DNA from: Nitrospinota bacterium
GTDB taxonomy: Bacteria; Nitrospinota; Nitrospinia; Nitrospinales; JACRGP01
DNA length: 61,235 nt
Assembly: GCA_016207065.1 (NCBI GenBank)
Contig: JACQQK010000074.1
Coordinates: forward strand, 1 to 61,235
Direction: 5' to 3'
The position numbers were made by a program, and so were the translations under genes. How positions within the stretch are numbered: position 1 is the stretch's first letter; each line of letters starts with the position of its first letter. The notes below the pieces were generated by a model. That model worked only from the letters and a program-made list of their open reading frames with translations, was not told the DNA's origin and made no database searches. Below are positions 8,700-24,914 of the stretch, piece after piece.

Positions 8700-9529
8700 T
8701 CGTTCCCTGGTTTCGCCATGGCGACGGCCTCGTTCAAGCTTCCCGTCCGGTAACCTTCAATATCGACCGCGACGTATTTAAAACCGATCTCCTTGAAGGC
8801 CCGTTGGACCCGGCCGGCAATATCGCCGGAAAAAAACGCCGCGATCTCCTCTTTCGGCAATTCGATGCGGGCGATGTCCCCATGGTGGCGCACCCGCATT
8901 TGCTTGAATCCCAGGGAAATCAGGAAATCCTCGGCATGCTCGATCATGGCCAGTTTTTCCGGCGTGACAGGCTGGCCGTAAGGAATCCGCGAGGAGAGAC
9001 AGGCCATGGCCGGTTTTTCCCAGGTGGAGAGCCCCATTTCGCGCGACAGGGCGCGGATGTCCGCCTTGGTGAAACCGGCGTCGCGCAAGGGGCTTTGGAC
9101 GTTGGCCTCCGCCGCCGCGGAGATGCCAGGACGGTAATCCCCCGCGTCGTCCGCGTTGGTCCCGTTCGCGATATGCGCGTAACCGCGTTCGTCGGCCAGG
9201 GCGCGCAACTTGCCGTACAGCTCGGACTTGCAGAAATAACACCGGTTGACCGGGTTGCTCCGGTAATCGGGAGAATCCATCTCGCCGGTCTGGATAACGA
9301 CGTGCCGCGCGCCGATCGTTTGCGCGAGTTTTCGCGCCTCGTCCAGTTCCCTCCGGGGCACGCTATCCGAACAAGCCGTCGCGGCCAGGACCTTGTCTCC
9401 CAGGACGGAATGGGCCGCGGCCAGGACCAGGGCGCTGTCCACCCCGCCCGAAAACGCAACCACGACGCTTCCCATGTCCCGTATCAGGGATTCCAGCTGG
9501 ATTTTTTTTTGCAGAAGCTCGACATCCAT
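8696..9529 (-). CDS. larE: LarE-family ATP-dependent sulfur transferase
   Basis: PP-loop AFSGGVDS, NRCYFCK, DYRPG, ACLSSRIPYG and GYRTGSLN motifs. Confidence 0.93.
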   Translation of the reverse strand: MDVELLQKKIQLESLIRDMGSVVVAFSGGVDSALVLAAAHSVLGDKVLAATACSDSVPRRELDEARKLAQTIGARHVVIQTGEMDSPDYRSNPVNRCYFCKSELYGKLRALADERGYAHIANGTNADDAGDYRPGISAAAEANVQSPLRDAGFTKADIRALSREMGLSTWEKPAMACLSSRIPYGQPVTPEKLAMIEHAEDFLISLGFKQMRVRHHGDIARIELPKEEIAAFFSGDIAGRVQRAFKEIGFKYVAVDIEGYRTGSLNEAVAMAKPGND

Positions 9530-10038
9530 CTTTTTACGATAGGCCTCGCGTTATTTACCGGTATTCAGGTTAACACAAAGGATTGGCGCAAACCAAAAAC
9601 CATTTTGACAAAACGCGCCGGGTCAACCGCCCGGGCACGGCCCATCCCGCGATTGAACATGAGCGGGGACCCCAGACAACCAATTCTTTACACGCTGGTT
9701 GGGGAATGCTATTCTTAACTTTTGGAGGGGACTGCGGCTTTCCCAGGACTCGCCGCCGGTTGCCGGTATTCGCGCTTTTTTCGCGGAACTCATCGCACAA
9801 CCGGCGGTTGCCAGAGGATACCCCATTGCGCGTCAAGAAAAGAGAACTCGGACGGGACAGACGCGACCCGGCCCCCGGGCTTCCGCCGGAACTCGAAAAT
9901 ATCCGGGGTTGACAGAAGGCCCGCATTTCGCTCCTCTCACGCGCTCTCTTTATCATAACGAACTCCCGTAACGCGCGATCCCGGAAGTCGGAAGCAGGAA
10001 AATACGGACGCAATTGCTTTCGCGTTTTAGCGGCAATC

Positions 10039-11493
10039 ATGCCCTCTTTGGAAAATAACCTGAAAAACCGGTTCTGGAGCGAAAATTTTCCGATTTGCAT
10101 TTTTAGCGCGATCGCCTTTTTATGGAGCGCGAATTTCCTGGACAGGTTTGTTGCCTTTCGCTCGGTTCAGCATCTGATAGCCGGAACGGTATGCGGCGGG
10201 GTCGGCGCGTTCCTGGTTTTTTCGTTGCGCAAGAGCCGGCAACAAGTCAAGAAGCACCTGGTCAATACGCTGGGAGCTTTTGTCCTGGCCCTGGCGCTTT
10301 CGGAATATTCGCTACAGAAGCTGGGCTCCCGCCATGCCGCGCCGCCTCAAGCGGTCCAGGCGCAGAGCCAGGGGATTCGCTTTGACGGGAGAAGCCCTTT
10401 TGAGGTTATCGCGGATTACCGGAGCAAGGGGGAGGACTACTACGAGCCAATTCAACCGGCCTCCTTTCATCGGTTGTTCGGGCGGGATTTGATCGTTGAC
10501 GGCAAAAAGGTCGTGGCTCTTGGCGGCGTGGCCAATGCGAACATCCTGCTTTGCAACGAAAGCGGGGCTTACGTCTCCTATCGCTCGGACGAGTATGGGT
10601 TCAACAACCCCCGCGGGCTGTGGGGCGACGGCGGAGCGATCGATATTGCCGTGATCGGAGATTCCTTCGCGCATGGATATTGCGTCGAACCGGGGCGGCA
10701 TTTTGTGGACCTGGTGAGAAGCCGCTTTTCCCGTACGGTCAATCTGGGGTTTGCCAACAATGGGCCTTTGACGGAGTTGGCCGGAATGCGCGAGTATCTG
10801 GCCGGGAGAAAGGTCAGGTACGCGTTTTTTGCGTATTACGAGGGGAACGATCTCACCAATTTGAACGAAGAAAAAGGCGACGCGATTTTGATGAGCTACC
10901 AGAATGAAAACTTTTCGCAAAACCTGGCGTCCCTGCAGGAAAAAATCAACGAAGCGGTCCGCGAACTCATCGCAACCGAGACGGAAAAGGCCATGAAAAA
11001 AAGCATGGCGCATGATCCAGGGACGGACGCGAGCTCCGCCTGGAGTCAACTTTGGAATCATCCTTTGCACTTTCTGTTTCCGAAGATGTACGAGAAAATC
11101 ACGCAAACCGCGATCGTTCCTCTTTCGGCGGGCGTCGGGAATCAGATATTTCTGGACATGGGTTTGTTCAAGAGAACGTTGGGTCTGGCAAAGTCTTTCA
11201 TGGACAAGGAGAACGGCAAGCTGACGTTTGTTTACCTGCCAACATACGAACGCTACAACAATGAAATCGTCGTCGGGATGAAAATGAAGGACGAAGTCCT
11301 CAAAACAGCTCGTTCGCTCGATCTGGATGTCATCGACATAGAGGCGTTGTTTGGAAAATCGAAAAACCCCAGGTTTCTGTATCAATACGGGATGAAAAAC
11401 CACTATTCCGAGGAGGGGCAGAGAATGATCGCCGACGCAATACTCGGTCATATCGGCAAAGAAGGCAAGCTTGGCGCGGTCGCCGCCCCATAA
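10039..11493 (+). CDS. Membrane-anchored SGNH/GDSL-fold protein (AlgJ/AlgX/PatB-like O-acyltransferase partner)
   Basis: N-terminal TMs, IGDSFAHG, YYEGND and a C-terminal NHYSEEG. Adjacent to an MBOAT gene. Confidence 0.7.
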   Translation: MPSLENNLKNRFWSENFPICIFSAIAFLWSANFLDRFVAFRSVQHLIAGTVCGGVGAFLVFSLRKSRQQVKKHLVNTLGAFVLALALSEYSLQKLGSRHAAPPQAVQAQSQGIRFDGRSPFEVIADYRSKGEDYYEPIQPASFHRLFGRDLIVDGKKVVALGGVANANILLCNESGAYVSYRSDEYGFNNPRGLWGDGGAIDIAVIGDSFAHGYCVEPGRHFVDLVRSRFSRTVNLGFANNGPLTELAGMREYLAGRKVRYAFFAYYEGNDLTNLNEEKGDAILMSYQNENFSQNLASLQEKINEAVRELIATETEKAMKKSMAHDPGTDASSAWSQLWNHPLHFLFPKMYEKITQTAIVPLSAGVGNQIFLDMGLFKRTLGLAKSFMDKENGKLTFVYLPTYERYNNEIVVGMKMKDEVLKTARSLDLDVIDIEALFGKSKNPRFLYQYGMKNHYSEEGQRMIADAILGHIGKEGKLGAVAAP

Positions 11494-11528: not shown

Positions 11529-12968
11529 TCAAAATTGGAAATAGATGAAGTCCTTGGGGCCGGCCGCGGACCAAGCGAAAACCGCGAACAAAACAAAGAA
11601 GATAAAAAAGTAAAACGCAAACGATCCGGGTTTGAAAAACACCCGGTCCTCCCTTGTGATGAAAAACCACAAGTGCACAACGATCATCCATGGGACGAAG
11701 AACAGATTTGCGGGCGACAAAATTTCCCAGTTTGGGGTTTTTCCGTCCATAAAAAGCATTTTCCCGTACAGTGTCCAGACCACATCCATGTTCCCGGCGC
11801 GGAACGGAACCCAGGCGAAGCATACAAACAGATAAGTGGCCGCCCACTTGCAAAAAGTCAGGGCAAAGCTCGGTTTGAAAACTCCGCCGCGGGAAACCGC
11901 CAAGACGCGGTTGGCGAAAAGCCCCGCGCCGTGCAAACCTCCCCAGAAGACGAAATTCCAGCTCGGACCGTGCCAAAGCCCCCCCAACAGCATGGTTATG
12001 AACGCGTTCAGGCCCGCTCTGGCAAACCCCAGTCGATTCCCCCCCAAGGGAATGTACAGATAATCCCGGAGCCACGAGGAAAGGGAGATGTGCCAGCGAC
12101 GCCAGAAATCGGACAAATCGGCCGCCAGGTAAGGAGTCCGGAAATTCACGGGCAGTTCGTACCCCAGGCTGAGAGCGACGCCGATGGCCATCTCGGAATA
12201 TCCGCTGAAATCGCAAAATATCTGAATCGAATATCCGATAACCGCCAGCCAGGCGGCGGCTCCGTCGTAGGATTGCGGGTCCTTGAATATCGGGTCGATG
12301 ATCGGCTGGATGTTGTCGGCGATAACCGCTTTTAAGAAGAGCCCGTAAAGAAAAACTTGCAGTCCTTTAAGAAAGTTTTCTCCGGAAATCGTCGCCGGAC
12401 GGAGAAGCTGTGGAAGGAAACTGGCGGCGCGGGCAATAGGTCCCGCCATGATTTGAGGAAAAAATCCCACATACAAGGCGAAGTCGAGCGGGTCATCCGC
12501 GGGCTTCATTTTCCCCAAATAGATGTCCAGGGGATAAGTCATCGCCTGAAACGTGTAAAACGAAATGCCGATGGGCAGGATGATGTCGAGGCGCGACGCC
12601 GAAATATGGAAACCGGCCAGGAGATAATTCGCGGAATCCACGAAAAAATTGCAATACTTGAAAAAACCCAGTATGCCGAGGTTGACCGCGAGACACATTG
12701 TAAGATAAAACCTTTTTTGCTTTTTTTCCCTGGCGTGGAATATTCCGCGACCCGCCCAATAATCGATCGCCGTAATGGCGATGACCAGAGAAAGAAAACG
12801 CGCGTCCCAGTACGCATAAAAATAATAGCTGGCGGCCAGCAGAAAAAATTTGTCCAACTTGAAAGGCAGGACAGCATCCGGAGATCGTACGGATGCCGCG
12901 TTCAGTAGAAAATGGACGCCGTAAACGATGATGAAAAAAACAAAAAAGGCGGCGCTTTGAAATACCAT
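11529..12968 (-). CDS. MBOAT family O-acyltransferase (AlgI/PatA/DltB-like)
   Basis: LPIGISFYTFQ, FFPQIMAGPI, DFSGYS, FWRRWHISLSSWLRDYLYIPLGG, GLWHG and a terminal FIYFQF. ATG 12968 preferred. Confidence 0.95.
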   Translation of the reverse strand: MVFQSAAFFVFFIIVYGVHFLLNAASVRSPDAVLPFKLDKFFLLAASYYFYAYWDARFLSLVIAITAIDYWAGRGIFHAREKKQKRFYLTMCLAVNLGILGFFKYCNFFVDSANYLLAGFHISASRLDIILPIGISFYTFQAMTYPLDIYLGKMKPADDPLDFALYVGFFPQIMAGPIARAASFLPQLLRPATISGENFLKGLQVFLYGLFLKAVIADNIQPIIDPIFKDPQSYDGAAAWLAVIGYSIQIFCDFSGYSEMAIGVALSLGYELPVNFRTPYLAADLSDFWRRWHISLSSWLRDYLYIPLGGNRLGFARAGLNAFITMLLGGLWHGPSWNFVFWGGLHGAGLFANRVLAVSRGGVFKPSFALTFCKWAATYLFVCFAWVPFRAGNMDVVWTLYGKMLFMDGKTPNWEILSPANLFFVPWMIVVHLWFFITREDRVFFKPGSFAFYFFIFFVLFAVFAWSAAGPKDFIYFQF

Positions 12969-13498
12969 GGGTTGTTCCAAGACGACTTGCCCCTTCGCAA
13001 CGCGCAAGGGGGGAAAGGGAAGCAGGCATGATGGTCCGGCAATTATAACTTGATCTTCAGGCAAGGGCTGAAGAACGAGCGATTATTGCCGATAAAGGCT
13101 GTGGCGGCTTGTTTGCATCCGAATCGGAGATAGAGAGGACTGAGACATGAAAGGTCGAGGTTTCCCGCGCCACGCCAGACTCGAGCAACACGTACGCTTT
13201 GTGGCATCCTACAATCTCGACATGGAAAAAGCAATGCGTTTCCGATTTGCCGTCCGAGCGGAAAATTTCCGGGTTTGCCCGGAAAACCGCCCCTCGATCC
13301 GGCCCGCGTTTTTCTCAATATTCCCCCGTGGGCCGGTTTTCAATTGACCTTCATGGTTTTGAAAAATATAATTAAACTGTTTTTAAAAGTACGGTCAAGC
13401 TTTGTTGAAAATATTTCCGCCGTTGTTTCGGCTAATCTGGCTCAAGTTGCCAACCGTTAACACCCCAATAACCCGATATCGTTCAATGGATTCCTTAT

Positions 13499-14992
13499 AT
13501 GAAACTCACCTTAGTTTACCCGACGTTTGGAATGGAAAAAAATCCGGTCCAGCCGTTTGGGATTCTGTACGTTGCCGCCGCTTTACAGAAAGCGGATTTT
13601 GAAGTCAGCATTATCGACACGTCGCTTTTTTCCGGGTTTGACGAGTTTGAGCAGGCGCTATCGCGGGAAAAACCGGATGTTCTGGGGTTTACCATCCCGA
13701 CCTGGCTACTGAACAACTCCTACAAGGCCATCAAAATCGCCCGCCGGGTCATGCCGCGCATACCCATTATCGTGGGCGGGCCGCATCCGACGATCCAGGC
13801 CGAGGAGATGTTGGAGTCTTTCGGCGCCGACGTCGCCTGTATCGGCGAAGGCGAGATCACCACCGTCGAGCTTTGCGAAGCGCTGAAAAACAAAACCGAT
13901 CTCCAGCGGGTAAAGGGCATCGTTTATCGCGACGGCGACCGGTTTATCCGTACCCCGCCCAGGGAAAAAGTCAAGGACCTGGACACCCTCGCCTGGCCCG
14001 CGCGCGATTTGTTGAACATATCGGCCTATCTGCAACAACCTCCCAACCCGCCGGAGCTTTACCCCTTGCTGGGCATTCTGGCCTCCAGAGGTTGCCCTTT
14101 CAGTTGCACTTTTTGCGCCGACACCCTGCACGAACTCTTCGGCAAATCCATCCGCTACCGCTCCCCGAAAGACGTCGTGGACGAAATGGAATTTATTACC
14201 CATAAATACAAATTGAGGGGCATTCGCATTGTCGACGACGAATTCACCGCCAACAACAAATGGGTGATGAAGTTTTGCGACGAAATGATCCGGCGCAAAG
14301 TGAAGGTGAGTTGGAGTTGCAACAGCCGGGTGGACACCGTTTCCGAGGAACTCATACAAAAAATGAAGGAAGCGGGATGCTCCTACATCATTTTCGGGGT
14401 CGAATCTGGGTCGCAACAAATTCTCGACTCCCTACGCAAGGAAATCAAAGTGGAGGAAATCAAAAGGGCTTTTGCGATTTGCAACAAATACGGTTTGCCC
14501 ACCCGTTGCAATCTGATGGTGGGGTCTCCCGGCGAAACCATGGATACGTTCAACGAGACCAAGCGACTGCTTTCCGACATCGAGCCGGACTTCATCATCG
14601 TCGGCATCACCTCGCCCATTCCAGGCACGGAGCTTTACGATCAAGCCAAGGCGAAAGGCATCACCATCGCCAAATCGGACTCCTCGATCGACCGTTTCCA
14701 GAGCCTGCTGATCCTGGAGAACTTCACACACCAGGAAACCGTGGGGCTGGTCAAAAACCTCTTCCACCATTACTTCAAGATCGTTGCTTCCTATCTTTAC
14801 AATCCGGTGCAACTGTTTAAAAAACGGCATTTTTTCAAGGCGATATTCCGCTATTTTTACAACATGTTCGCGCAAAACCCCAGGCTGTGCCTCAGCACCG
14901 TTTTGCACCTTGTGAACTATCAAAAAGTGCGTTTCGGAAACGCCTTGACCGTAGCCAACGTGGTTGAAGAGCAAAGGAAGTTCATTTGCTGA
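13499..14992 (+). CDS. Cobalamin-binding radical SAM protein
   Basis: B12-binding N-domain (GGPHPT, GEGE), SRGCPFSCTFC (CxxxCxxC) and GVESGSQ. Confidence 0.93.
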   Translation: MKLTLVYPTFGMEKNPVQPFGILYVAAALQKADFEVSIIDTSLFSGFDEFEQALSREKPDVLGFTIPTWLLNNSYKAIKIARRVMPRIPIIVGGPHPTIQAEEMLESFGADVACIGEGEITTVELCEALKNKTDLQRVKGIVYRDGDRFIRTPPREKVKDLDTLAWPARDLLNISAYLQQPPNPPELYPLLGILASRGCPFSCTFCADTLHELFGKSIRYRSPKDVVDEMEFITHKYKLRGIRIVDDEFTANNKWVMKFCDEMIRRKVKVSWSCNSRVDTVSEELIQKMKEAGCSYIIFGVESGSQQILDSLRKEIKVEEIKRAFAICNKYGLPTRCNLMVGSPGETMDTFNETKRLLSDIEPDFIIVGITSPIPGTELYDQAKAKGITIAKSDSSIDRFQSLLILENFTHQETVGLVKNLFHHYFKIVASYLYNPVQLFKKRHFFKAIFRYFYNMFAQNPRLCLSTVLHLVNYQKVRFGNALTVANVVEEQRKFIC

Positions 14993-15085
14993 TCCCCCCG
15001 TTTCGGATCGGAATTCCAACCGGGGCGCTCGATTTTCGGTCCCCGATTAAAGCCGCCGCGCCATCGTATTGATAAACTTCGCTCC

Positions 15086-16342
15086 ATGCCGGGAAACGGA
15101 ATAAAAACCTCCAGATCGTTGCTGGTCTTCACCTCGACTTTCCCGAGATGGAAGGGAGACAAGCTCCCGGCGGACTTCGTTTTCCGTCTCGCGCGAGAAA
15201 TGACTCGGCATTATTCCACGTTCGTCCTGGCTCCTCACGATTCCACCGCCGCGGAAAGCGAGGAAATGGACTCCGTCGCCGTTCGCCGGTTCCCTTATTT
15301 CTGGCCGAGGAGGCTCCAGAAGCTGGCGGACGGGAAGGGCATCCTGGCGAACATACGCGGGAGCCTTCTCGCCTGGCTCCAGGTCCCGTTTTTTTTGTTC
15401 CGCGAGGCCTTGGCGTTCGCCAGGGTCGTGCGGGAAAACAATATCGGAATTGTAAACTCGCACTGGCTTGTCCCGCAAGGCGTCATCGCCGCTTTTTTCA
15501 AGAAGAGATACGGGTTTGTTCACGCCATAACCGTCCACGCCGCCGACGTATTTCTGCTCAACCGTCTGCCTTTCGGAAAACGCGTTGCGCGGTATATCGT
15601 GGAAAACGCCGACCTCATCATTCCCGTCAGCAAGCACAACCACGATCTTTTGCGCGGCATGGCCGGACGCGACTTCAAGTCGCTGATTCTGCCCATGGGA
15701 GTCGACGTCGAGTTTTTCGGCGGTTCAGGCGCCACCAAGCCAAAGGCGGAACTCTCGGTCGATCCGTCAAAGCGGACGATTCTTTTCGTCGGAAAACTTA
15801 CCGAAAAAAAAGGCGTCGTTTATCTCATCCGCGCCATGAAGGAGTTGCTGACGAAACTGCCCGACGTCCAATTGGCGATCGTGGGGGACGGTTATCTGCG
15901 GCCGGAATTGGAAAAGGAAAGCCTGGAGCTTGGGAACGCGGTCAAATTTGTCGGCCAGAAATCCCGGGACGAAGTCCGGGATTATCTGCAAGTCGCGGAA
16001 GCCCTGGTTGTCCCTTCCATCATTGACCGGCATGGGGAAACCGAGGGCGTACCGCTGGTAATTCTTGAGGCAATGGCCGCTGGACGGCCCATCGTCGCCA
16101 CCGATGTCGGCGGCAATTCCCAGATGGTTTTTCATGGAGAAAACGGATATATTGTCCGAGAAAAAGATCCATCGGGAATCGCCGAATCTCTCCTGTCGCT
16201 TTTATCCGAGGGCCGGGCGTCCGGGATGGGGCGGAAATCCCTGGAAATCATAAAAGACCTGGACTGGAAAATCGTCGGAGAACGTTATAAAACCGCTATC
16301 GAACAAAGTTGCCGCCAACCCCGGCCATCCCATAAGCCTTGA
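15086..16342 (+). CDS. Glycosyltransferase family 4
   Basis: HWLVPQG, FVGKLTEKKG and EGVPLVILEAMAAG (EX7E) motifs. Confidence 0.93.
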   Translation: MPGNGIKTSRSLLVFTSTFPRWKGDKLPADFVFRLAREMTRHYSTFVLAPHDSTAAESEEMDSVAVRRFPYFWPRRLQKLADGKGILANIRGSLLAWLQVPFFLFREALAFARVVRENNIGIVNSHWLVPQGVIAAFFKKRYGFVHAITVHAADVFLLNRLPFGKRVARYIVENADLIIPVSKHNHDLLRGMAGRDFKSLILPMGVDVEFFGGSGATKPKAELSVDPSKRTILFVGKLTEKKGVVYLIRAMKELLTKLPDVQLAIVGDGYLRPELEKESLELGNAVKFVGQKSRDEVRDYLQVAEALVVPSIIDRHGETEGVPLVILEAMAAGRPIVATDVGGNSQMVFHGENGYIVREKDPSGIAESLLSLLSEGRASGMGRKSLEIIKDLDWKIVGERYKTAIEQSCRQPRPSHKP

Positions 16343-17439
16343 AGAAAACCGTCCTTGTAGTTTCCATTCCCATCGTTCCTCCCTGGAACCAGGCCAGCAA
16401 GAATTTCGCGATCAATCTTGCCCGTCACTCGCGCCACGATTTTATTCTGATGTCGACGCACAATGGCCGCGAGGGCAACGTGTTTTTCGAACGGTTTTAT
16501 TCCTCGAAAAACATCGATCTGACGTCCTTCCAGAAAATATTCATGCTGATGAAGTTTCTGCTGAGAAAAAACTCCGGGATCGATATCCTGCATTTCGTTT
16601 TTGAGCCAAACCCGGCGGCGCTGTCGATATGGAGCTGGGTCGCGAAAATAATGCGGAAGCCCTGCGTGCACACGTTATTAAATCTTTTGGACGAGCGTCA
16701 GGATTGCCGAAAACTGCTTTTTGCCGACCGCATAACGGTCTGCACCAACAAGGTCTTGCGACAGTTGCGGGAAAAACAAGTCGAAAACGTCAGCCTGATC
16801 GTTCCGGGTATTCATGTCGAAAATTTTGCCAGACGAGAGAAGCGCCCGGAGATTTTCAAGAAATACGGCTTGCCGGAACGCCCCATAATCCTTTTCCCGG
16901 GGACGTATTACCCGCATCACGGAATGGAAACCATGTTCGAATCCTTCTTGAAAATCATCAAGACCCGCAACGACGTTTCCCTGGTTTCCGCCTGCCGGGT
17001 CCGGACCCCGTTGGAGGAAAGCGAGGAGGCGCGCTTCAAAAAAAAGGCGCTGGAAATGCGCTTGCAGGACAAAATTTTCTTTTTGCGGATAGTTCCCGAC
17101 ATGGCGGAATTGTTGAGCCTGTCCGATGTTTGCGTTTTCCCCCCGTCGCTGTTGATGGACAAGGCTTCCGTGCCCTTGATCGTGCTGGAAGCCGCAGCGG
17201 CGGAGCTTCCCGTCGTCGCAACCAACATACCCACTTTGGACGAGATCAAATGTCTGCATCCGGATTTTACCGTCCCGCCGCTCGACAGTTCCTTGCTGGC
17301 GGAGAAAATCCTGCAACTGTTGCGGGACAAAAACCTTTCCCGGTCGGTCGCCGCATGGCAGAAGGAAGCGGTGACGAGATATTATGACGCAAGAAACATG
17401 GCGCAAGAATACGATCTCTTATACGATCGATTGATTTGA
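16339..17439 (+). CDS. Glycosyltransferase family 4 (divergent)
   Basis: GT-B C-terminal motif PLIVLEAAAAELPVVATN. Coupled to both neighbours by 4-nt overlaps. Confidence 0.85.
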   Translation: MKKTVLVVSIPIVPPWNQASKNFAINLARHSRHDFILMSTHNGREGNVFFERFYSSKNIDLTSFQKIFMLMKFLLRKNSGIDILHFVFEPNPAALSIWSWVAKIMRKPCVHTLLNLLDERQDCRKLLFADRITVCTNKVLRQLREKQVENVSLIVPGIHVENFARREKRPEIFKKYGLPERPIILFPGTYYPHHGMETMFESFLKIIKTRNDVSLVSACRVRTPLEESEEARFKKKALEMRLQDKIFFLRIVPDMAELLSLSDVCVFPPSLLMDKASVPLIVLEAAAAELPVVATNIPTLDEIKCLHPDFTVPPLDSSLLAEKILQLLRDKNLSRSVAAWQKEAVTRYYDARNMAQEYDLLYDRLI

Positions 17440-18086
17440 AAATCGCCGGAAGCTCGCGCATGATCATCAGCTTTTCAGGGTTGGACGGATCGGGCAAGAC
17501 CACGCAGATCGAATTGCTGGCTGGACTTTTGCGTTCCAGAGGCATTCCCTTCGGCATCGTGAGGACGGGGCGGATTTCCCTCGTCGAGTCGGCGAAAAGT
17601 GCGTTGCAAACGCTCGGATGCGGCTGGGTTTCCCGCGTCGAAAAGGCGCAACGCGAGAAAAGCGGCAATCCCTCGCTGTTGAAAAGAATCCTGACGTTCG
17701 TCCGCCCACTGTGTTTTGTGGCCGACATCTTGATCTTTCAAGCGTTTTACCGGTTGCCTTTCCGCCTCAAGCGCGAAACCATGTTGTGCGACCGGTATTT
17801 TTTCGACGCCATCGCGCACTTTTTGCATCTCGGCATATGTTCGCGGCGCACGGCCTTCTCTCTGCTCGGCCTTGCTCCCAAGGCGGACATTGCCTTCTAT
17901 CTGCAAATCCGCGCCCGCGCCGCTTATCGGAGAAAACCGGAGTATGACGAATCGTATTTCGACGACAAAGCCGGAATCTACGCCGACATCGCCGAAAAAC
18001 TTGGAATGACCGTTATCGAAACCGGCGACATTCAGGAAACGTTCCAGTCCATCCAGCGCCATCTGCGCTCGCGGTCGGTTTTGTAG
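17436..18086 (+). CDS. Thymidylate-kinase-like P-loop kinase
   Basis: SGLDGSGKTT Walker A and CDRY motif. Embedded in a GT operon, so probably not the housekeeping tmk. Confidence 0.8.
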   Translation: MKIAGSSRMIISFSGLDGSGKTTQIELLAGLLRSRGIPFGIVRTGRISLVESAKSALQTLGCGWVSRVEKAQREKSGNPSLLKRILTFVRPLCFVADILIFQAFYRLPFRLKRETMLCDRYFFDAIAHFLHLGICSRRTAFSLLGLAPKADIAFYLQIRARAAYRRKPEYDESYFDDKAGIYADIAEKLGMTVIETGDIQETFQSIQRHLRSRSVL

Positions 18087-18092
18087 GCGCCG

Positions 18093-19025
18093 ATGCAAAA
18101 ACACAAATATCTTCTCCTTGCTCTCGTATTGTTCGCGGCGGTTTATTTCGCCCGTAGCAACCTGGACGAGATCAAAAAAATTCAAAACGTCCGGGCCGAA
18201 ACCGTCCTGTCTCTCGTCGTTCTCAACCTATTGAGCAGGATGACGGTGGGATACCGCATCAAAACCGTCTCGCGGATATACGGCATCGACATCGGATTCG
18301 GCGAATGGTTCGGCGTCGCCGCGATCAACAGTTTCTACAATTATCTGCTCGCGAAGAGCGGAACCCTGGCCAACGCCATGTACTTCGGAAAAAAATACGG
18401 CGTGTCGATGCCGAACTATATCGTGACGTTTGGTTCCACGCACGTATTCACGTTGCTGGCCTGCGGCATCGTCGGCCTGCCCGCCTCGGTTTACGCGGCC
18501 GGCAGGGGTTATCCCGCCGACGCCTTGTGCGCGCTGTTTCTTTTTCTCCTCGCGGTTCCATGCGTTTTGATTTTTTTTCCAGACCTTGAATGGAAGGGCG
18601 GGAGTACCCTTCAAAACAAGGCGCGGTCCCTGTTGCAAGGATGGTCGGTTTTGCGGCGCTCGAAAGAAACATGCGCGCTTTTGCTGTTATGCGAGTTGTC
18701 GAACCTGTTGTTCTTCGCCCTGCGGTTTTACCTGGCGTTCCAGGCGTTCGGGTACGACCTCGATTTCTGGGTTTCTCTCTTGCTGTCTCCCGTGACGTTG
18801 CTTTCGGGATTCATCGGAATCACTCCCGCCGCCTTGGGGATACGAGAGGCGGCGGGAGGCCTGTTGACGCGTCTGCTGGGCTTCGGCATGCAGGCCGGCG
18901 TTCTGGCGACGGTTCTCGATCGCGCCGTGGTCATGACCATCGCCTTTACCCTGGGGCCGTTTTTTTCCTACACGTTGCTGAAAGGCATCGACGCCGCCCC
19001 CCACAAGCCGCAAGAGAAGATTTGA
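18093..19025 (+). CDS. Flippase-like membrane protein (LPG-synthase TM / UPF0104 family)
   Basis: Multiple TMs and a TPAALGIREA motif. Confidence 0.8.
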   Translation: MQKHKYLLLALVLFAAVYFARSNLDEIKKIQNVRAETVLSLVVLNLLSRMTVGYRIKTVSRIYGIDIGFGEWFGVAAINSFYNYLLAKSGTLANAMYFGKKYGVSMPNYIVTFGSTHVFTLLACGIVGLPASVYAAGRGYPADALCALFLFLLAVPCVLIFFPDLEWKGGSTLQNKARSLLQGWSVLRRSKETCALLLLCELSNLLFFALRFYLAFQAFGYDLDFWVSLLLSPVTLLSGFIGITPAALGIREAAGGLLTRLLGFGMQAGVLATVLDRAVVMTIAFTLGPFFSYTLLKGIDAAPHKPQEKI

Positions 19026-19163
19026 GGGCGTCGCGGCAAAATAGTTTATTGCCGCGAGACGCGGGGTTTGATTTTGGTAAAAACCTTGGGAATCGCCTGT
19101 GTTAAGATGAAATCCGGTTTTTATCGAACATAAACGCTCATTTCGGTTTTTGGACGGAGGTCG

Positions 19164-20654
19164 ATGAAGATACAGTCTCTTTCAAACAATAAAAAACGCG
19201 TGGACCCGCGGGAAGGCATGCGCGTCCCCATTGTGTTGAACGTGAGCGATTCCATAATGCCCTGCGCGAAGACCCTCGAGCGCCTGGCCGCCATCGCCTC
19301 CCACGACTCCGTCTGCTCGCACGTGGCGGCGCTTTCGGATATCCATTACAAACCCAGGAACGAATGCCCGACCGGGACCGCCATTGTCACCGAAGACAAG
19401 ATCGTTCCGCAGTTCATCGACGCCGGTTTGAACTGCGGCATGCGGATGATCAAAACGCCGCTTTTCGATCGCGATCTGCCGGATTCCGCCGTCACGGCGT
19501 TATTCCGAAAAATGCAGGAACGCATCCCCATAACGGCGAAGAACAACGTAAAACTTTCCCACGAGGAGTTTTTTGAGATCGCCAGGAAAGGCGCCCCGTA
19601 TATCATCGAAAAACACGGGCTGGATCCGGAAGAGGCCGCTTTCATCGAGTTTGGCGGCAATATGTTCGCGGACGAGAAAGTCGACGACGAGGACATCCGC
19701 GAGTGCATCCCCGATACTTTCAGGAACATGTCGCTCGCCCGGTTCGGAACCCTGGGAAAGGGCAACCACTTCATCGAGTTGCAGAAAATAGAGGATATTG
19801 TGGACGACGAGATCGCCCGCATCCTCGGAGTCGAAAAGAACCAGATCGTGGTATTGATGCATACGGGTTCCTCGGCCTTGGGAAATCTGGCCAGCAACTT
19901 TTACGCACCCAGGAAAATGCCCCCACATCGCGCCCTGTTCATGTTCCTGGAGCGGTTGCGGTTTTACGGTTTGTCGTTCTCCGTTTTTGGCGCGGAAATC
20001 GACCGGCTGTTCCGCGTGCTGACGAACCGCCAGGGTTTCCAAGCTCTAGATGAAGACTCGAAAGACGCCGTTCTATTCCTGCGGGCGATGAAGGCCGCGC
20101 ACAACTTCGGCTATGCGTCGAGGACCCGCATCATGGAATTGATACGGAAAAGCTTCGCGGAAACCCTGGGCAAGCCCGATTTCCGGATGTCGTTGCTTTA
20201 CGACATGTCGCATGTCTCCATATTCCGCGAGGAACATTTCGGGAAAAAAGTATGGGTGCACCGGCACGGCGCCACGCGCGCATTTCCGTCCAACCGGGTC
20301 AACGGCCACCCCGTTTTCGGCAAAACCGGCGAGCCGGTCTTCGTTCCCGGTTCCATGGGCGACCCGACTTACCTGGGCGTCGGGCATCCGGAAAACTTCG
20401 ACACCTATTTTTCCTCCAGCCACGGCGCGGGCGTCGCCGACAGCGGCGGCAAACCCCTGGCCTCCGACAAGGAAACCCTGACCCGGAAAATGCACCAGAG
20501 AAAAGTCCAACTCTTTAAAAACGGAACCGAAAACCTCAGCAAGATCGACCCCGATCGTTTCAAAAATATCGAGATCGTCGTCAATGGCATGCGGGAAAAC
20601 AAGATCATCCGCCTTGTCGCCAAACTGTCGCCCATAGCCGTTATGAAGGGATGA
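19164..20654 (+). CDS. Divergent RtcB-family protein
   Basis: NCGMR, GTLGKGNHFIE, MHTGS, YDMSH, HRHGAT, VPGSMG, HGAG and a C-terminal PIAVMKG. Several canonical residues are altered. Confidence 0.9.
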   Translation: MKIQSLSNNKKRVDPREGMRVPIVLNVSDSIMPCAKTLERLAAIASHDSVCSHVAALSDIHYKPRNECPTGTAIVTEDKIVPQFIDAGLNCGMRMIKTPLFDRDLPDSAVTALFRKMQERIPITAKNNVKLSHEEFFEIARKGAPYIIEKHGLDPEEAAFIEFGGNMFADEKVDDEDIRECIPDTFRNMSLARFGTLGKGNHFIELQKIEDIVDDEIARILGVEKNQIVVLMHTGSSALGNLASNFYAPRKMPPHRALFMFLERLRFYGLSFSVFGAEIDRLFRVLTNRQGFQALDEDSKDAVLFLRAMKAAHNFGYASRTRIMELIRKSFAETLGKPDFRMSLLYDMSHVSIFREEHFGKKVWVHRHGATRAFPSNRVNGHPVFGKTGEPVFVPGSMGDPTYLGVGHPENFDTYFSSSHGAGVADSGGKPLASDKETLTRKMHQRKVQLFKNGTENLSKIDPDRFKNIEIVVNGMRENKIIRLVAKLSPIAVMKG

Positions 20655-20729
20655 GCTTTCCTCCGCCGACCCGTTTCCGTTCCGGCTGGAGGAAAGCGGA
20701 AACCCGGCTCCAATGAAACCGGCACCAGA

Positions 20730-22802
20730 ATGTTTGCTCTCGCCTTTCTTTGTCTATATACGATCGGGTTTTTGATTTCCCATCTTTGCCTGCCGCGCGT
20801 CGGCCCCCTCGAAAAAATCGGGCTTGGCTTTGGTCTGGGCATGGGAGTCGTCACCCTGCTGGTTTTTTTTCTTCTGCTATCGCATTCCCTTTCGTCCGTC
20901 AGCCTGGTTCTCTCCGAAATCGCCATTCTGGTTTTGCTTGGCCTTGCCTGCGCGAGGAAAAAACGCGGGTTGCCGCCGGGAGAGCGCCCCGGATTTTTTT
21001 TTGCGGCGGATGAAGAGGAAAACCGCGCCTCGATCCTGTTTTGTCTCGCCATCATAACATTTCTGGCATTGTCCGGTTTCGCTTTCTCTTCGGTCATACC
21101 CGTCATGGAAGCCGACGCGCTCAATTATTCCGTCTTTGGGCGCTCCGTAGCCATCGCCAACGACCTGGCGGGAATTACGGAGGGGCTTTACAAGGACCAC
21201 CGGCAACGCACCCCGCTCGTGCCGCTGACCTATGCGCTCGTCGAGTCCGTGAACGGCCCGTTGCCCAAAATCGCCCACCCACTTTTCTACCTTTCGTTTC
21301 TTCTAGTTTTTTTTGGCCGCGCGACCGGCCTGGGATTACGGACAGAGAAAGCCGTTCTTTTGACAACCCTGCTGGCAAGCGCGCCGCTTGTTTGGTGGCA
21401 TGGCGTCTTGTCGTTGAACAACCTGGCGACGGGTTACTACTTTTGCTCGGCGACGTTTTTCATGACCGCCGCTCTGTTCGAAAAGGAGGCGCCGCGCAAA
21501 TCGTACGCTTTGCTGAGCGGAGTTTTTTATGCGTTTGCCGTCTGGGCCAGGCTTGAGTTTTTGGCGTATTTTATCATTCCGTTGCTCGTCTTGATCCGGC
21601 ATTCCCTTAGAACGGACGACTTCCGACTGCCTTTTTATTTGTCGTTTCCGCCGCTGGCCCTGGGAGGGCTGTGGGCAATTTACGTGCATCTGTTTATAAA
21701 CGGGCAAAAATTCCCCCGGAAGGACTTGCTGGTCATCGCCGCGATAATCGCGATATTGTCGGCTTACGCCGCATTTTACGAGCGGCTCGTCGCGCGCGGG
21801 GACCCGGACCGAAGGGGCGGATGGAGCGGATATTTAAACGTTGCGGAGAATTTCTGCGGCAGAAACTTGATTGCCGCGGTTTCCGCCGCGCTGATTCCGA
21901 TCGTTGTCCTGGGGGAGTTTAAAGTTTTCGAGAACGTTTCCCCGGCGCTCAATTACTTTCTGGTTTCAGCAAGAGCGCGGATTTTTCAAACCCTGATGCA
22001 CCACGGTTATTGGATATTTACCAATACATTGCTGTTTGCCTTTTTATTCGGACTTTTTCCTCTCACGCGCGAGATGAAATATCTGTTTTTCATTCTCGCC
22101 TTGCTCGTGGCGTTTCACAATGCTCTTTATCTGGCCGTGGGACATAGCAAGGGCCATGAAATAAGCGGGATCGGGATCATCAAAGCCCATATTTTCAACG
22201 CGGGCCATTATGTCAACGGATCGTCCACCCGCGAACTCATCGCATTTTATCCGATCGTCATTTTCGCGGCGGCGTTGGGATGGAACGCTTTTTCGCGGGG
22301 GAACCCGGGCCATCAGGCCCGGTCTCGCGGGACCGCGGTTATTGTCAAGTCCGCGATAGCGCTCAACCTGACGGTTTTACTGTGCTTCTTCTGGATTCCC
22401 AGAGCCGTTTTTGTGGCAAAACACTTTGGCGAAAGCCAGAGGGAACTGTTGCTTTCCGAGGGGCCGAAGGACATCCCCAATTATTTCCAAACGGCAAACC
22501 AGTGGGCTTTCAGAGTAAAGGACCGGACGCCCGATAACGCGGTCATCGTCGCCCCCCTGGAGCATTCCATCGGACCGTTTTCCATGGCCAGTATTTTATT
22601 GCCGCGGAAAACGGCGTGGTTCCAGGAAAATACGCAACCGGACCCGTCGATTTATACACGGCATGGAGACCGACCGGTATATGCGATCACCGCGGGCGGG
22701 TGGTTTCCCCTTGCGCCCTACGAAACGCTGGAAACATTCAGGCACCAGGAATTCGAGGTGTCCCTGGTCAGAATCTTGAATACGCCCGCTACTACGCCTT
22801 GA
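20730..22802 (+). CDS. Polytopic membrane protein, ArnT/PMT (GT-C)-like
   Basis: Many TM helices, an early extracytoplasmic loop with an acidic residue (EADALNY) and a C-terminal soluble domain. Glycan-locus context. Confidence 0.55.
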   Translation: MFALAFLCLYTIGFLISHLCLPRVGPLEKIGLGFGLGMGVVTLLVFFLLLSHSLSSVSLVLSEIAILVLLGLACARKKRGLPPGERPGFFFAADEEENRASILFCLAIITFLALSGFAFSSVIPVMEADALNYSVFGRSVAIANDLAGITEGLYKDHRQRTPLVPLTYALVESVNGPLPKIAHPLFYLSFLLVFFGRATGLGLRTEKAVLLTTLLASAPLVWWHGVLSLNNLATGYYFCSATFFMTAALFEKEAPRKSYALLSGVFYAFAVWARLEFLAYFIIPLLVLIRHSLRTDDFRLPFYLSFPPLALGGLWAIYVHLFINGQKFPRKDLLVIAAIIAILSAYAAFYERLVARGDPDRRGGWSGYLNVAENFCGRNLIAAVSAALIPIVVLGEFKVFENVSPALNYFLVSARARIFQTLMHHGYWIFTNTLLFAFLFGLFPLTREMKYLFFILALLVAFHNALYLAVGHSKGHEISGIGIIKAHIFNAGHYVNGSSTRELIAFYPIVIFAAALGWNAFSRGNPGHQARSRGTAVIVKSAIALNLTVLLCFFWIPRAVFVAKHFGESQRELLLSEGPKDIPNYFQTANQWAFRVKDRTPDNAVIVAPLEHSIGPFSMASILLPRKTAWFQENTQPDPSIYTRHGDRPVYAITAGGWFPLAPYETLETFRHQEFEVSLVRILNTPATTP

Positions 22803-23796
22803 ACGCTTCCTCGGCTTCCCTTCGCAATTGGTTCTCCCGTCCGCTGTGGCGCGCCGAAAAATGGAACGGAAGTAGATTCTTCACCCCCGCCATTTTCGCC
22901 AGCGTTCCCGCCTGCCGGGAAGTGAGATGGCAACGCTCCCGACCGCGTTCCTCCTCCTCGGCAATGAACGGCGACTCGCAGTAAAAGACGTCGGCGTCCC
23001 GGACCAGATCGACGATCCTGCGGTTGTTCCGCTCGTTGAACACCGTGTCCACGACATAGGCGATCTTCTGCCCCGGCGAAATAATCACGAGGTCCTTCTT
23101 CAAATCCCCCAAACGGCGTTCCTCGAAAGCGTTTTGCGCGTTACCGTTCGCCGGAACGCGGACCGGCCAGTCGTCGGCCCTTTGCTCGTGGATGGAGCGC
23201 TTTAATTCGTTGAGCCAGGCGCCGGGGGCAAGACCCAAACTGTCCAGCCGATCCTTGCGGATATTGACATGGAACCTCTCCTTGAGGGCGAACCCCAGGC
23301 AGGGAACCCTGTGTTCCAAAATAGCCGTATGGATGGAGAACGCCGGCTCGTCCAGAAGGACGTTTTCCGCGAAAGGCTCCCGCCCCTCGCCGGTTTTCCT
23401 GAACTTGTCGAGCGCGCGAAACCGGGCGGTCAACAAATGGTCCTCGTGGACTTCCACCGCTTCAATGGTGACGGATTCGTTGTAATTGGCCACCAGGTTC
23501 CAGGTGAACCCGCGCAGTTTCCCCTCGACGTTGGCGATAAAATTCTCCGGCCCGTACATGCGGATGGTCTTCCCCCGCCCGAAGACGATCCGCAAAAACC
23601 GGTCGAAGCCGATGAAATGGTCGATATGCGTATGACTGACAAAGACGTGGGACACCTTCAAAAGGACGGCGTTGGGCACGGAGGACAGGTCCCCGAGGTC
23701 GAACAGGAGGGCCCTGCTCTCGTGCAGAAAATGGACCACGAGGCCGGGGTCGCCCAGGGGATCGTTGATCAATGCCGGATGAAAATGGGGTTTCAT
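22792..23796 (-). CDS. RNase Z-like metallo-beta-lactamase
   Basis: SHTHIDH (HxHxDH), LEHRVPCLGF, flexible-arm PG.WL, YVVDT, HLT and FHFS.R motifs. Confidence 0.88.
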   Translation of the reverse strand: MKPHFHPALINDPLGDPGLVVHFLHESRALLFDLGDLSSVPNAVLLKVSHVFVSHTHIDHFIGFDRFLRIVFGRGKTIRMYGPENFIANVEGKLRGFTWNLVANYNESVTIEAVEVHEDHLLTARFRALDKFRKTGEGREPFAENVLLDEPAFSIHTAILEHRVPCLGFALKERFHVNIRKDRLDSLGLAPGAWLNELKRSIHEQRADDWPVRVPANGNAQNAFEERRLGDLKKDLVIISPGQKIAYVVDTVFNERNNRRIVDLVRDADVFYCESPFIAEEEERGRERCHLTSRQAGTLAKMAGVKNLLPFHFSARHSGRENQLRREAEEAFKA

Positions 23797-23803
23797 GACT
23801 CGC

Positions 23804-24914
23804 TCATTCGGACGCCTTGGAGGCGTTCTTTAACAGATACGCTTCGATGAACATCTCCAGATCGCCATCCAGCACGGCGTCCACGTTTCCGGTTTCGACC
23901 TGGGTGCGGAGGTCTTTCGCCAGGCGATAGGGATGCAACACGTAGGAGCGGATCTGGCTCCCCCACTCGATCTTCTTCTTGGATTTTTCCAACGCCCGCA
24001 GTTCCTCGTCCTTCTTCTCCTGCTCAATCTCATAGAGACGGGCCCGCAAAACCTTCATGGCCGAGGCCTTGTTTTTATGCTGGGAACGTTCGTTCTGGCA
24101 TTGCACCACGATGCCCGTGGGGACGTGGGTGATGCGCACGGCGGAGTCGGTGGTGTTCACGCCCTGCCCGCCCGGTCCCGAAGAACGGTACACGTCGATC
24201 TTGAGGTCGGATTCGTTGATCGCCACCTCGATATCGTCCTGGATCTCGGGATAGACGAAGACGGAGGCGAACGAGGTGTGCCGCCGCTTGTTGGCGTCGA
24301 AAGGGGAAATGCGCACCAGGCGGTGCACTCCGATCTCGGCGCGCAAGTAACCGTAGGCGTAATCCCCGGCGAACGTCACGGTGGCGCTCTTGATGCCCGC
24401 CTCCTCGCCGTATTGCATGTCCAGGACCTCCGTCTTGTAGCCGTTGCGGTCGCCCCAGCGGGTATACATGCGGAGCAACATCATGGCCCAGTCCTGCGAC
24501 TCCGTTCCGCCCGCCCCCGAATTGATGGACAGGATGGCGTTGTTGAAATCGTTTTCCCCCGACAGCATGGCCTTGACCTCGGCCTGGGAGACCTTTTCCT
24601 CCAGCTTGGAAACGGCCGACTGGATTTCGGCGGCCATGGAATCGTCCTCTTCCTCCTCCGAGAGGGCGATCATGGCTTCGATGTCCTCTCCGGCCTTGTG
24701 GAGGTCTTTCCAAAGGCTCGCCACCCGCTGGGTTCCGGCGCGCTTCCGCAATAGTTTCTGGGCGGATTCGTTGTCGGCCCAAAAACCGGGAGCCGTCGCC
24801 TCCCGGTCCATGACTTCCAACTCTTTTACCTTTTTATCGACGTCAAAGATAACCTCGAAGCCGTTCGATCCTGTGGGACAAATCCTCGTAAGATTTCTTG
24901 AACTCGCCGATCAT
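23804..24914 (-). CDS. prfB: Peptide chain release factor 2 with programmed +1 frameshift
   Basis: SPF and GGQ motifs. Upstream 23-codon ORF (ATG 24914, MIGEF...LRGYL) ends in CTT-TGA-C at 24848-24842, and the +1 frame joins the long ORF. Confidence 0.97.
24842..24856 (-). promoter_or_regulatory. prfB autoregulatory frameshift site
   Basis: Minus strand reads GAGGT TAT CTT TGA C: an internal SD-like sequence followed by the slippery codon and UGA. Confidence 0.93.

Follow-up and report, generated by a model that had tools for sequence, protein, structure and literature searches.

Why should an enzyme of the RtcB family, known only for joining nucleic-acid ends, be encoded in the midst of glycosyltransferases, a kinase and a flippase-like protein? 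This question is raised by positions 13499-22802 of a 61,235-nucleotide stretch from a Nitrospinota bacterium (contig JACQQK010000074.1 of assembly GCA_016207065.1; the whole stretch is called the window here), where the gene at 19164-20654 encodes a divergent RtcB homologue, P0001. An original prediction, made from the letters alone, had placed this gene in a possible non-RNA phosphodiester-forming system. With moderate confidence, we now read 19164-20654 as the gene of an active enzyme in an RtcB subfamily of its own, serving envelope-glycan biosynthesis rather than RNA repair. As to its activity, we lean, if only slightly, towards P0001 being a GTP (guanosine triphosphate)-dependent enzyme, which transfers guanylate to a phosphomonoester made by the kinase, on a sugar or on a lipid-linked glycan, and then links it to a hydroxyl.

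The protein family and the core chemistry of such an enzyme are known, whereas its predicted class of substrate, its partners and its pathway would be new. In a full-text literature search, no paper was found that links RtcB to the synthesis of glycans, to glycosyltransferases, to thymidylate-kinase-like genes or to Patescibacteria, which agrees with the earlier statement that a role of RtcB in envelope biosynthesis had not been described. The partnership with a glycosyltransferase and a kinase, conserved and in some loci fused, is a concrete candidate for a new substrate class of this family, and the missing RNA-holding residues agree with this.

Guanylylation site and strand contacts in a separate RtcB clade

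P0001 stays below every NCBIfam cut-off for RtcB (126 bits versus 407 for NF007153 and 101.6 versus 271.8 for TIGR03073), and it matches solved RtcB structures with 151-167 bits. A protein search returned three near relatives (70, 60 and 61% identity) and then about 40 proteins at 33-39%, after which the score falls from 244 to 190 bits, into the canonical RtcBs. In a quick maximum-likelihood tree of 68 sequences with SH-aLRT support values, the divergent RtcBs are a single clade apart from canonical RtcB (100%), i.e. the homologues of 19164-20654 form a clade of their own, and the divergence that had been suspected from P0001 alone is borne out. Within this clade, the window type (five rows, 99%) is the sister group of the branch with the Moraniibacteriota, and the two together form a clade of 34 rows (100%). 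When one genome per species was scanned, 211 relatives were found, of which the best 80 were used for all locus counts given below. Among these best 80 of 211, locus L023 belongs to a gammaproteobacterial metagenome-assembled genome (MAG; 60% identity) and nearly all others to Patescibacteria, mostly Moraniibacteriota; several of the 80 loci carry 'Bdellovibrionales' labels that look wrong. A metagenome scan with P0001 gave 20 loci, none of them closer than 39%, and the relatives at 70 and 61% identity are P0003 and P0005.

For metal and guanylate binding, the residues of P0001 can be compared directly with those of the Pyrococcus horikoshii enzyme. As described in PMC9745838, Cys98, His234 and His329 are the ligands of the first metal (M1), Cys98, Asp95 and His203 those of the second (M2), and Lys480 and Glu206 contact the guanine. 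We mapped P0001 onto this enzyme from a HMMER alignment, with positions counted by hand, and tabulated the residues for 79 of the 80 loci; L058 was left out because its RtcB was not recovered by calling of open reading frames (ORFs). P0001 keeps C91, H233 and H350 for M1, H202 for M2, and likewise N201, H420, K467 and E205. The nucleophile H420 (His404 in Pyrococcus), which lies in the motif SSSHGAG, is the same throughout alignments A1 and A2 and in all 79 locus sequences. The metal ligands C91, H233, H350 and H202 are invariant in the clade alignments, N201 (the counterpart of Asn202) is invariant in the clade, and the guanine contacts K467 and E205 are kept, with Asp in place of E205 in the Moraniibacteriota branch. 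The position of Asp95, three residues ahead of the Cys, is Gly88 in P0001 and Ala in 69/69 glycan-linked loci, i.e. those with the glycosyltransferase GT4b and/or the kinase described below. An Asp is found instead at -5 (D86 in P0001), in 79/79 locus sequences and in 40 of the 43 database members of the clade, whereas 76 of 77 canonical RtcBs, our comparison set, combine G at -5 with D at -3. Judged by these residues, P0001 appears capable of binding GTP and metals and of forming His-GMP.

It is at the other side of the reaction, where canonical RtcB holds the strand with the attacking 5'-OH, that the clade departs from the family. In the Pyrococcus enzyme, as described in PMC8051266, Asn202 holds the 5'-OH itself, the first two phosphodiesters of this strand are bound by Arg238, Arg190 and Gln194, and His242 packs on its first base; mutation of the E. 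coli counterpart of Arg238 slowed sealing 200-fold, guanylylation only threefold. In P0001, Arg190 has become M189 (I, V, F, T or L in 69/69 glycan-linked loci, R or K in 0/69; R in 74/77 canonical RtcBs), Gln194 has become R193 (R in 69/69; canonical Q in 72/77), Arg238 has become S237 (G in 69/69; canonical R in 76/77) and His242 has become N241 (Q in 69/69; canonical H in 68/77). In the aligned sequences, all four contacts to the 5'-OH polynucleotide are replaced throughout the glycan-linked clade, and P0001, as judged from its residues, has lost what canonical RtcB uses to grip a polynucleotide acceptor. With the RNA-holding residues lost, what P0001 joins or activates is probably not RNA. 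In the window type, V424 and G428 take the place of two arginines that come after the nucleophile (HGAGR...R) and that are each present in 76/77 canonical RtcBs; the available part of the review PMC10630183 makes no mention of them. In addition, P0001 carries an insert of about 28 residues after H233.

A conserved unit of GT4b, RtcB and a thymidylate-kinase-fold kinase

In its gene neighbourhood the clade is just as distinct as in its residues. The window neighbours of P0001 were searched by tblastn in the 80 loci, 75 of which have enough sequence upstream and 77 downstream. In 60/80 loci, a homologue of GT4b, the second of the two GT4 glycosyltransferases in the window, precedes RtcB on the same strand at a distance of under 500 bp; in four more it ends where RtcB starts, such that it is directly upstream in 64/80, and five further loci have it within 3 kb. 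A homologue of the window kinase is found downstream of RtcB, within 500 bp in 49/80 and within 3 kb in 56/80 loci, and both genes are present in 53/80. In two of the 80 loci, L045 (886 residues) and L061 (974 residues), a GT4 domain and RtcB follow each other in one ORF. By ORF clustering, the GT4a, GT4b and kinase of the window fall into the same groups as the patescibacterial genes, with the GT4a cluster represented in 60/80 loci and typically located four genes upstream of RtcB. Around 20 canonical rtcB genes of relatives (about 6 kb per side where the contig allowed), neither the kinase (0/20) nor GT4b (0/20) was found; the profiles used for this control were built from the test loci themselves, and only its 0/20 figure is an independent result. 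The window genes for RNase Z, prfB and GDSL proteins were matched in 0/80 loci. Overall, the conserved working unit consists of GT4b, RtcB and the thymidylate-kinase-fold kinase. A complex prediction for GT4b with RtcB (alignments A6 and A2) scored 0.00 and counts neither way.

The computational tests proposed with the original prediction all came out in its favour. It had called for a scoring of neighbourhoods for enrichment in glycosyltransferases, thymidylate-kinase-like genes and flippases, and the same GT4 and kinase dominate the neighbourhoods, together with flippases and GT-C-like proteins. It had named homologues in unrelated or RNA-repair contexts as the outcome that would count against it. 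This pattern was not seen, with the exception of loci L087 and L090, whose RtcBs retain the Arg238 counterpart, and of four loci in which RtcB adjoins YvcK.

In the Moraniibacteriota, the unit is part of a longer operon, which begins with a UDP-glucose/GDP-mannose dehydrogenase, a GT2 like the polyprenyl-phosphate-sugar synthases and GT4a. Next come a membrane protein of 640 residues, GT-C-like, and a small protein, then the unit itself in the order GT4b, RtcB and kinase, and last a flippase of the Wzx type; genes for Wzy_C and PMT-like proteins are close by. The flippase differs by lineage, being of the MprF type in the window and of the Wzx type in the Moraniibacteriota loci, and the radical SAM enzyme that opens the window block is absent from the Moraniibacteriota module. 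As a lead only, the Atlas model of the 640-residue protein resembles DUF6541, RgtA-like and PMT_2 clusters (TM 0.62-0.77). It is not detectably homologous to P0002, the GT-C-fold protein of the window (hhalign probability 6%). The small protein (about 120-140 residues, e.g. L101:8500-8871 and L050:8256-8678) is encoded between the 640-residue protein and GT4b in 55/80 loci (35 + 20, clusters c8 and c10), and these clusters had no Pfam or NCBIfam match.

The kinase itself is of thymidylate kinase (TMK) fold. With its model (pLDDT 86.4), every listed Foldseek match in the PDB (39 rows) is a thymidylate kinase (TM 0.57-0.78), and SGLDGSGKxTQ, DRYFxD, R90, D97 and R166 are invariant in 51 sequences of the family; the motifs of TMK are the P-loop GxDGxGK(S/T)TQ and DR(Y/F), and the family has both. 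It does not reach the equivalog level, with 29.3 bits, over residues 8-36 only, against a dTMP-kinase cut-off of 83.25 (TIGR00041). A genuine tmk is located on contig C34 (142 bits), i.e. the window kinase is an extra copy, and the genome has two more weak TMK-like paralogs (G000:C141:9817-10206, 59 bits; G000:C143:14454-14948, 34.5 bits). Where TMK holds the base, the kinase family has an insert (alignment A3 columns ~60-95, residues ~45-80) that is variable and poorly modelled; in many Moraniibacteriota kinases it has a C-x2-C ... C pattern, which might form a small metal site.

Kinase partners may not be confined to the glycan-linked branch. The P0031-type sister branch, which includes L087 and L090, keeps the Arg238 counterpart and is devoid of the GT4b and kinase context. 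In L090, however, RtcB (9962-11344) is preceded by a 364-residue P-loop protein (8776-9867) with weak similarity to HprK-related kinase A (28 bits), and in P0041 (828 residues) RtcB carries, as a fused N-terminal part, an HprK-related domain with 41% identity to this L090 gene. The N-termini of both long forms, P0041 and P0044 (852 residues), match the HprK-related gene of L090; they showed no relation to GT4b or to the TMK-like kinase, and the 218-residue gene downstream of RtcB in L090 is not a member of the TMK-like family either. A kinase together with RtcB may be a theme of the whole clade with the shifted Asp, with different kinases in different branches. In 4/80 loci (L044:6154-7146, L085:116-1120, L094 and L096), the gene that immediately precedes RtcB, in the same orientation, encodes YvcK. 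This member of the CofD family binds UDP-GlcNAc, and with 272 bits against a cut-off of 196 the gene is identified as YvcK; CofD proper, which a Pfam CofD match had suggested for these four loci, was rejected.

The gene block in its window and genome

The seven co-oriented genes that had been listed, from radical SAM enzyme to GT-C-like protein, are all present on the plus strand, and their ORFs, families and folds were confirmed (table 1). GT4a and GT4b both pass the Glycos_transf_1 cut-off of 26.4 bits (GT-B C-terminal domain). Neighbouring genes overlap by four bases between GT4a and GT4b and between GT4b and the kinase; the other intergenic gaps measure 94, 7, 139 and 76 bases, and the 3' end of the P0002 gene overlaps the convergent RNase Z gene. 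The radical SAM enzyme scores under every NCBIfam equivalog cut-off and has a counterpart in L023 at 29% identity. For the flippase-like protein, TIGR00374 gives 42 bits, slightly below its cut-off of 43.2, and flippase activity is a prediction from family membership.

Table 1. Features of the block at 13499-22802 and its immediate surroundings, with positions as in the window.
Feature	Position	Strand	Evidence
Candidate sigma-70-like promoter ahead of the operon	13344..13372	+	TTGACC-17-TATAAT, 11/12 matches
B12-binding radical SAM enzyme, opens the block	13499..14992	+	PF02310 94 bits, PF04055 101.5 bits
GT4 glycosyltransferase GT4a	15086..16342	+	Glycos_transf_1 127.7 bits, Glyco_trans_1_4 130 bits
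GT4 glycosyltransferase GT4b, RtcB-linked	16339..17439	+	Glycos_transf_1 75.1 bits
Thymidylate-kinase-fold P-loop kinase, divergent paralog	17436..18086	+	Thymidylate_kin 30.7 bits, residues 14-38 only
MprF-type flippase-like membrane protein (LPG_synthase_TM / UPF0104)	18093..19025	+	PF03706 74.6 bits (cut-off 33.4)
Divergent RtcB-family enzyme P0001	19164..20654	+	PF01139 258.8 bits (cut-off 27), residues 41-496
GT-C-fold polytopic membrane protein P0002, 690 residues, closes the block	20730..22802	+	No Pfam match; model
RNase Z	22792-23796	minus	410 bits
prfB	23804-24820	minus	516 bits to prfB profile

P0002 has, on the basis of its model (pLDDT 86.0, pTM 0.90), a GT-C fold. VIA-align placed ArnT first (Z 22.7, 430 aligned residues, root-mean-square deviation 4.9), followed by AglB (Z 20.5) and ALG12/STT3 (Z 19); in Foldseek the TM values are only 0.31-0.40, and GT-C proteins make up all of the top 28 rows. 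A word-index search recovered P0002 alone, and 180 relatives came from full HMMER. D129, within a FPIT..DG stretch, is at least 90% conserved in 35 relatives and might correspond to the catalytic acidic residue in the first external loop of GT-C enzymes.

Promoter-like sites in this region number five as against 5.4 in shuffled sequence, so that the site in table 1 stays a candidate only. In 12800-23900, the number of terminator-like sites does not exceed that in shuffled sequence (27 versus 19.6, s.d. 4.5), and no operon boundary was drawn from them. The assembled order of the block is well supported, with zero differences and even depth in Logan contigs from three runs, which may be those of the source samples, and with a single Logan contig of 9876 bases that covers 13118-22993. 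Since independent contigs agree across the block, a chimeric join is unlikely.

The assembly is a groundwater MAG (79.6% complete). The prediction had found no rtcA, rtcR, archease, Ro60 or prfH in the window and had raised the question of a separate canonical rtcB. Such a gene is present on contig C126 (570.9 bits), directly adjoining archease (135 bits), and profile searches of the whole assembly at its 79.6% completeness gave no match to RTC (RtcA), RtcR or TROVE/Ro. The one prfH-like match in the window is prfB, with 124.5 bits against a prfH cut-off of 166.65, and elsewhere a release-factor-like match on contig C27 is also under this cut-off; the absence from the window thus holds for all five. 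Among 40 relatives spanning genus to order, none has an orthologue of P0001 (best foreign match 74 bits, versus 1130 for P0001 itself).

Several further observations concern the window and related sequences. Between roughly 10 and 20 kb of the window, the G+C content is 0.52-0.55, as compared with 0.57-0.62 on both sides, which fits a laterally acquired surface-glycan island, and the groundwater from which the MAG was derived is a habitat rich in Patescibacteria. The prfB ORF begins at profile position 26 of 353, a late start that is the expected mark of the programmed +1 frameshift of release factor 2 (RF2), and a 369-residue form of the same protein is in the database (P0273). Named prfB relatives at 74-78% identity are from Nitrospinaceae, Nitrospinota or Nitrospina gracilis, and they point to a member of Nitrospinota as the probable source of the MAG. 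A partial prfB, P0337, is 97% identical to that of the window and is labelled 'Candidatus Uhrbacteria', whereas the other named relatives are Nitrospinota; it probably stems from a mis-binned contig in a public MAG. In L023, a second B12-radical SAM gene (L023:4876-5495) is split into two ORFs, and about 1 kb just before the flippase-like gene (L023:7963-9008) is without an ORF of at least 90 residues. This stretch is rich in stops and in A+T, and a broken kinase gene was looked for in it and not found.

Possible activities and known systems

How could the products of these genes work together? In the pathway we propose, GT4a and GT4b would build a sugar or lipid-linked glycan at the cytoplasmic face, to which the kinase would add a phosphate. 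At its two-metal site, P0001 would charge GMP from GTP onto His420 and move it to the phosphomonoester, generating X-pp-G, and attack by a hydroxyl of a second sugar, a polyol or a lipid would then produce the phosphodiester and release GMP. The product would finally be flipped and handed on by the GT-C protein. The lost 5'-OH contacts and the GT4::RtcB fusions support the predicted non-RNA system, while its chemistry is something we infer from sequence.

Several points weigh against this assignment. The Asp95 ligand of M2 is shifted by two positions, and TMK-fold kinases normally phosphorylate the phosphate of a nucleotide and not a sugar hydroxyl. Loci L044, L085, L094 and L096 share the residue signature without having GT4b or the kinase, and L023, the closest relative with context (60% identity), has neither in 10 kb upstream, with 650 bp available downstream; what it does have is a flippase-like gene directly upstream of RtcB (49% identity) as well as GT4a and radical SAM genes. 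In the window itself, a gap of 139 bp with a weak terminator-like hairpin (19052-19064) precedes the rtcB homologue. The clade RtcB is the sole RtcB in 5/5 genomes tested (four Patescibacteria and the L023 MAG), and if an RNA 3'-phosphate/5'-OH ligase is needed there, the clade enzyme would have to serve. Finally, most of the 80 loci come from a single lineage, the Moraniibacteriota, so that much of the synteny count is inherited and not independent. Independent support comes from the same four families occurring in different order in a Nitrospinota-like genome, from the fusions and from linkage on both sides of the deepest split in the 34-row clade.

The alternative that survives best, though we consider it unlikely, is that P0001 is an ordinary RNA 3'-phosphate/5'-OH ligase for repair or tRNA processing, which became fixed in a glycan operon by chance and has been carried along by descent and block transfer. 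P0001 is, after all, a clear match to RtcB (258.8 bits) with its catalytic and GTP-binding residues, the shifted Asp95 aside, intact, patescibacterial operons are generally long and mixed, and the window has RNase Z and prfB immediately downstream, albeit on the opposite strand; the status of the clade enzyme as the only RtcB in five other carrier genomes fits here as well. A chance association does not easily account for single GT4::RtcB ORFs in two of the 80 loci, or for a kinase and GT4b kept beside RtcB in another gene order and in an unrelated phylum, with such neighbours at 0/20 canonical rtcB loci. RNA breaks already carry a phosphate from the nuclease cut and RNA-repair RtcB systems need no kinase, and the dedicated kinase partner therefore points to biosynthesis. 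The genome, moreover, already has a canonical rtcB-archease pair, and the four 5'-OH strand contacts are replaced clade-wide, including the Arg with the 200-fold effect on sealing in E. coli (PMC8051266).

Less likely again is that P0001 acts as a guanylyltransferase only, converting a kinase-made sugar phosphate into a GDP-linked donor (X-pp-G) for GT4b or another transferase and replacing a sugar-1-phosphate nucleotidyltransferase. The pattern of retained guanylylation residues, with loss of the Arg238 counterpart that acts mainly in sealing, would suit this role, and so would the ability of canonical RtcB to form stable DNA3'pp5'G caps (both from PMC8051266). Its tightest partner is indeed a nucleotide-sugar-dependent GT4, adjacent in 64/80 loci and fused in 2/80. 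The invariant N201, however, whose Pyrococcus counterpart anchors the attacking hydroxyl, fits a retained joining step. We also know of no precedent for a GT4 that uses a phosphate-linked donor made by a kinase and an RtcB, which tells against this role.

That the substrate is still a nucleotide or short nucleic acid tied to the glycan pathway, e.g. a nucleotide-bearing or ribose-phosphate surface polymer or a glycosylated RNA, is highly improbable, since the TMK fold of the kinase with its P-loop Asp and DR(Y/F), nucleotide-binding in known members, and the fact that ribose 3'-phosphates are native to RtcB chemistry stand against lost polynucleotide phosphate contacts, a module without any conserved nuclease, RNA-binding or nucleotide-sugar-modifying gene, and a variable, poorly modelled insert in place of the base-holding region of TMK.

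Returning to an RtcB in envelope-glycan biosynthesis, the sister branches allow a more general formulation, to which we would give an even chance: a whole branch of RtcB, found in at least 211 genomes at species level, has left nucleic-acid repair and now serves a surface-glycan pathway as its GTP-driven enzyme for forming phosphodiesters or activating phosphates, using phosphate supplied by a dedicated P-loop kinase, which is TMK-like here and HprK-related, in one case even fused, in the sister branch. If true, this would be the first RtcB with a substrate other than nucleic acid and would open a nucleotide-sugar-independent route to phosphodiester-linked envelope polymers. It would also provide a testable role for a module that is nearly universal in Moraniibacteriota, whose surface chemistry has hardly been described, and it cautions that not every RtcB homologue should be annotated as a ligase of tRNA splicing or RNA repair.

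With canonical RtcB (PH1602, E. coli RtcB, human RTCB), P0001 shares the PF01139 fold, the Cys/His/His/His metal ligands, the His nucleophile and the Lys/Glu guanine contacts. In contrast to P0001, the canonical enzymes fall outside its clade (100%), have the M2 Asp unshifted and keep the four strand contacts, whereas P0001 has V and G for the two post-nucleophile arginines, the insert of about 28 residues after H233, and a GT4 and a kinase as partners where canonical RtcB has archease, RtcA, RtcR, Ro or PrfH. RtcB paralogs with altered end specificity are known, as shown by 5'-phosphate capping by RtcB3 (PMC8051266 and PMC10630183). RtcB2-PrfH and the Myxococcus RtcB paralogs are similar cases of a second RtcB copy with a dedicated partner and a specialized target; these, however, still act on RNA or DNA with nucleic-acid partners, while P0001 has glycan enzymes as partners and its nucleic-acid contacts are gone.

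With respect to chemistry, there are parallels outside the family. CobU/CobS in cobalamin nucleotide loop assembly and CofC/CofD in F420 synthesis make small-molecule phosphodiesters via a GMP-activated phosphate. As in the scheme proposed here, a kinase step is followed by guanylyl transfer to give X-pp-G, for which CobU is a His-GMP enzyme, and attack by a hydroxyl then releases GMP; in the cobalamin case, the enzyme of the last step is a membrane protein with several spans. The module showed no homologue of CobU, CobS, CofC or CofD; these are unrelated protein families, and the likeness would be one of proposed chemistry only.

With respect to the product, the comparison is with the phosphotransferases of teichoic acids and capsules. 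TagF/TarL, LicD and Stealth proteins insert phosphodiesters into surface glycans using CDP- or UDP-activated donors from nucleotidyltransferases, and profile scans of 13499-22802 found none of these families and no nucleotidyltransferase families. What the module of P0001 would have in common with them is the predicted class of product, i.e. a phosphodiester-linked envelope glycopolymer that is built on the cytoplasmic face and flipped.

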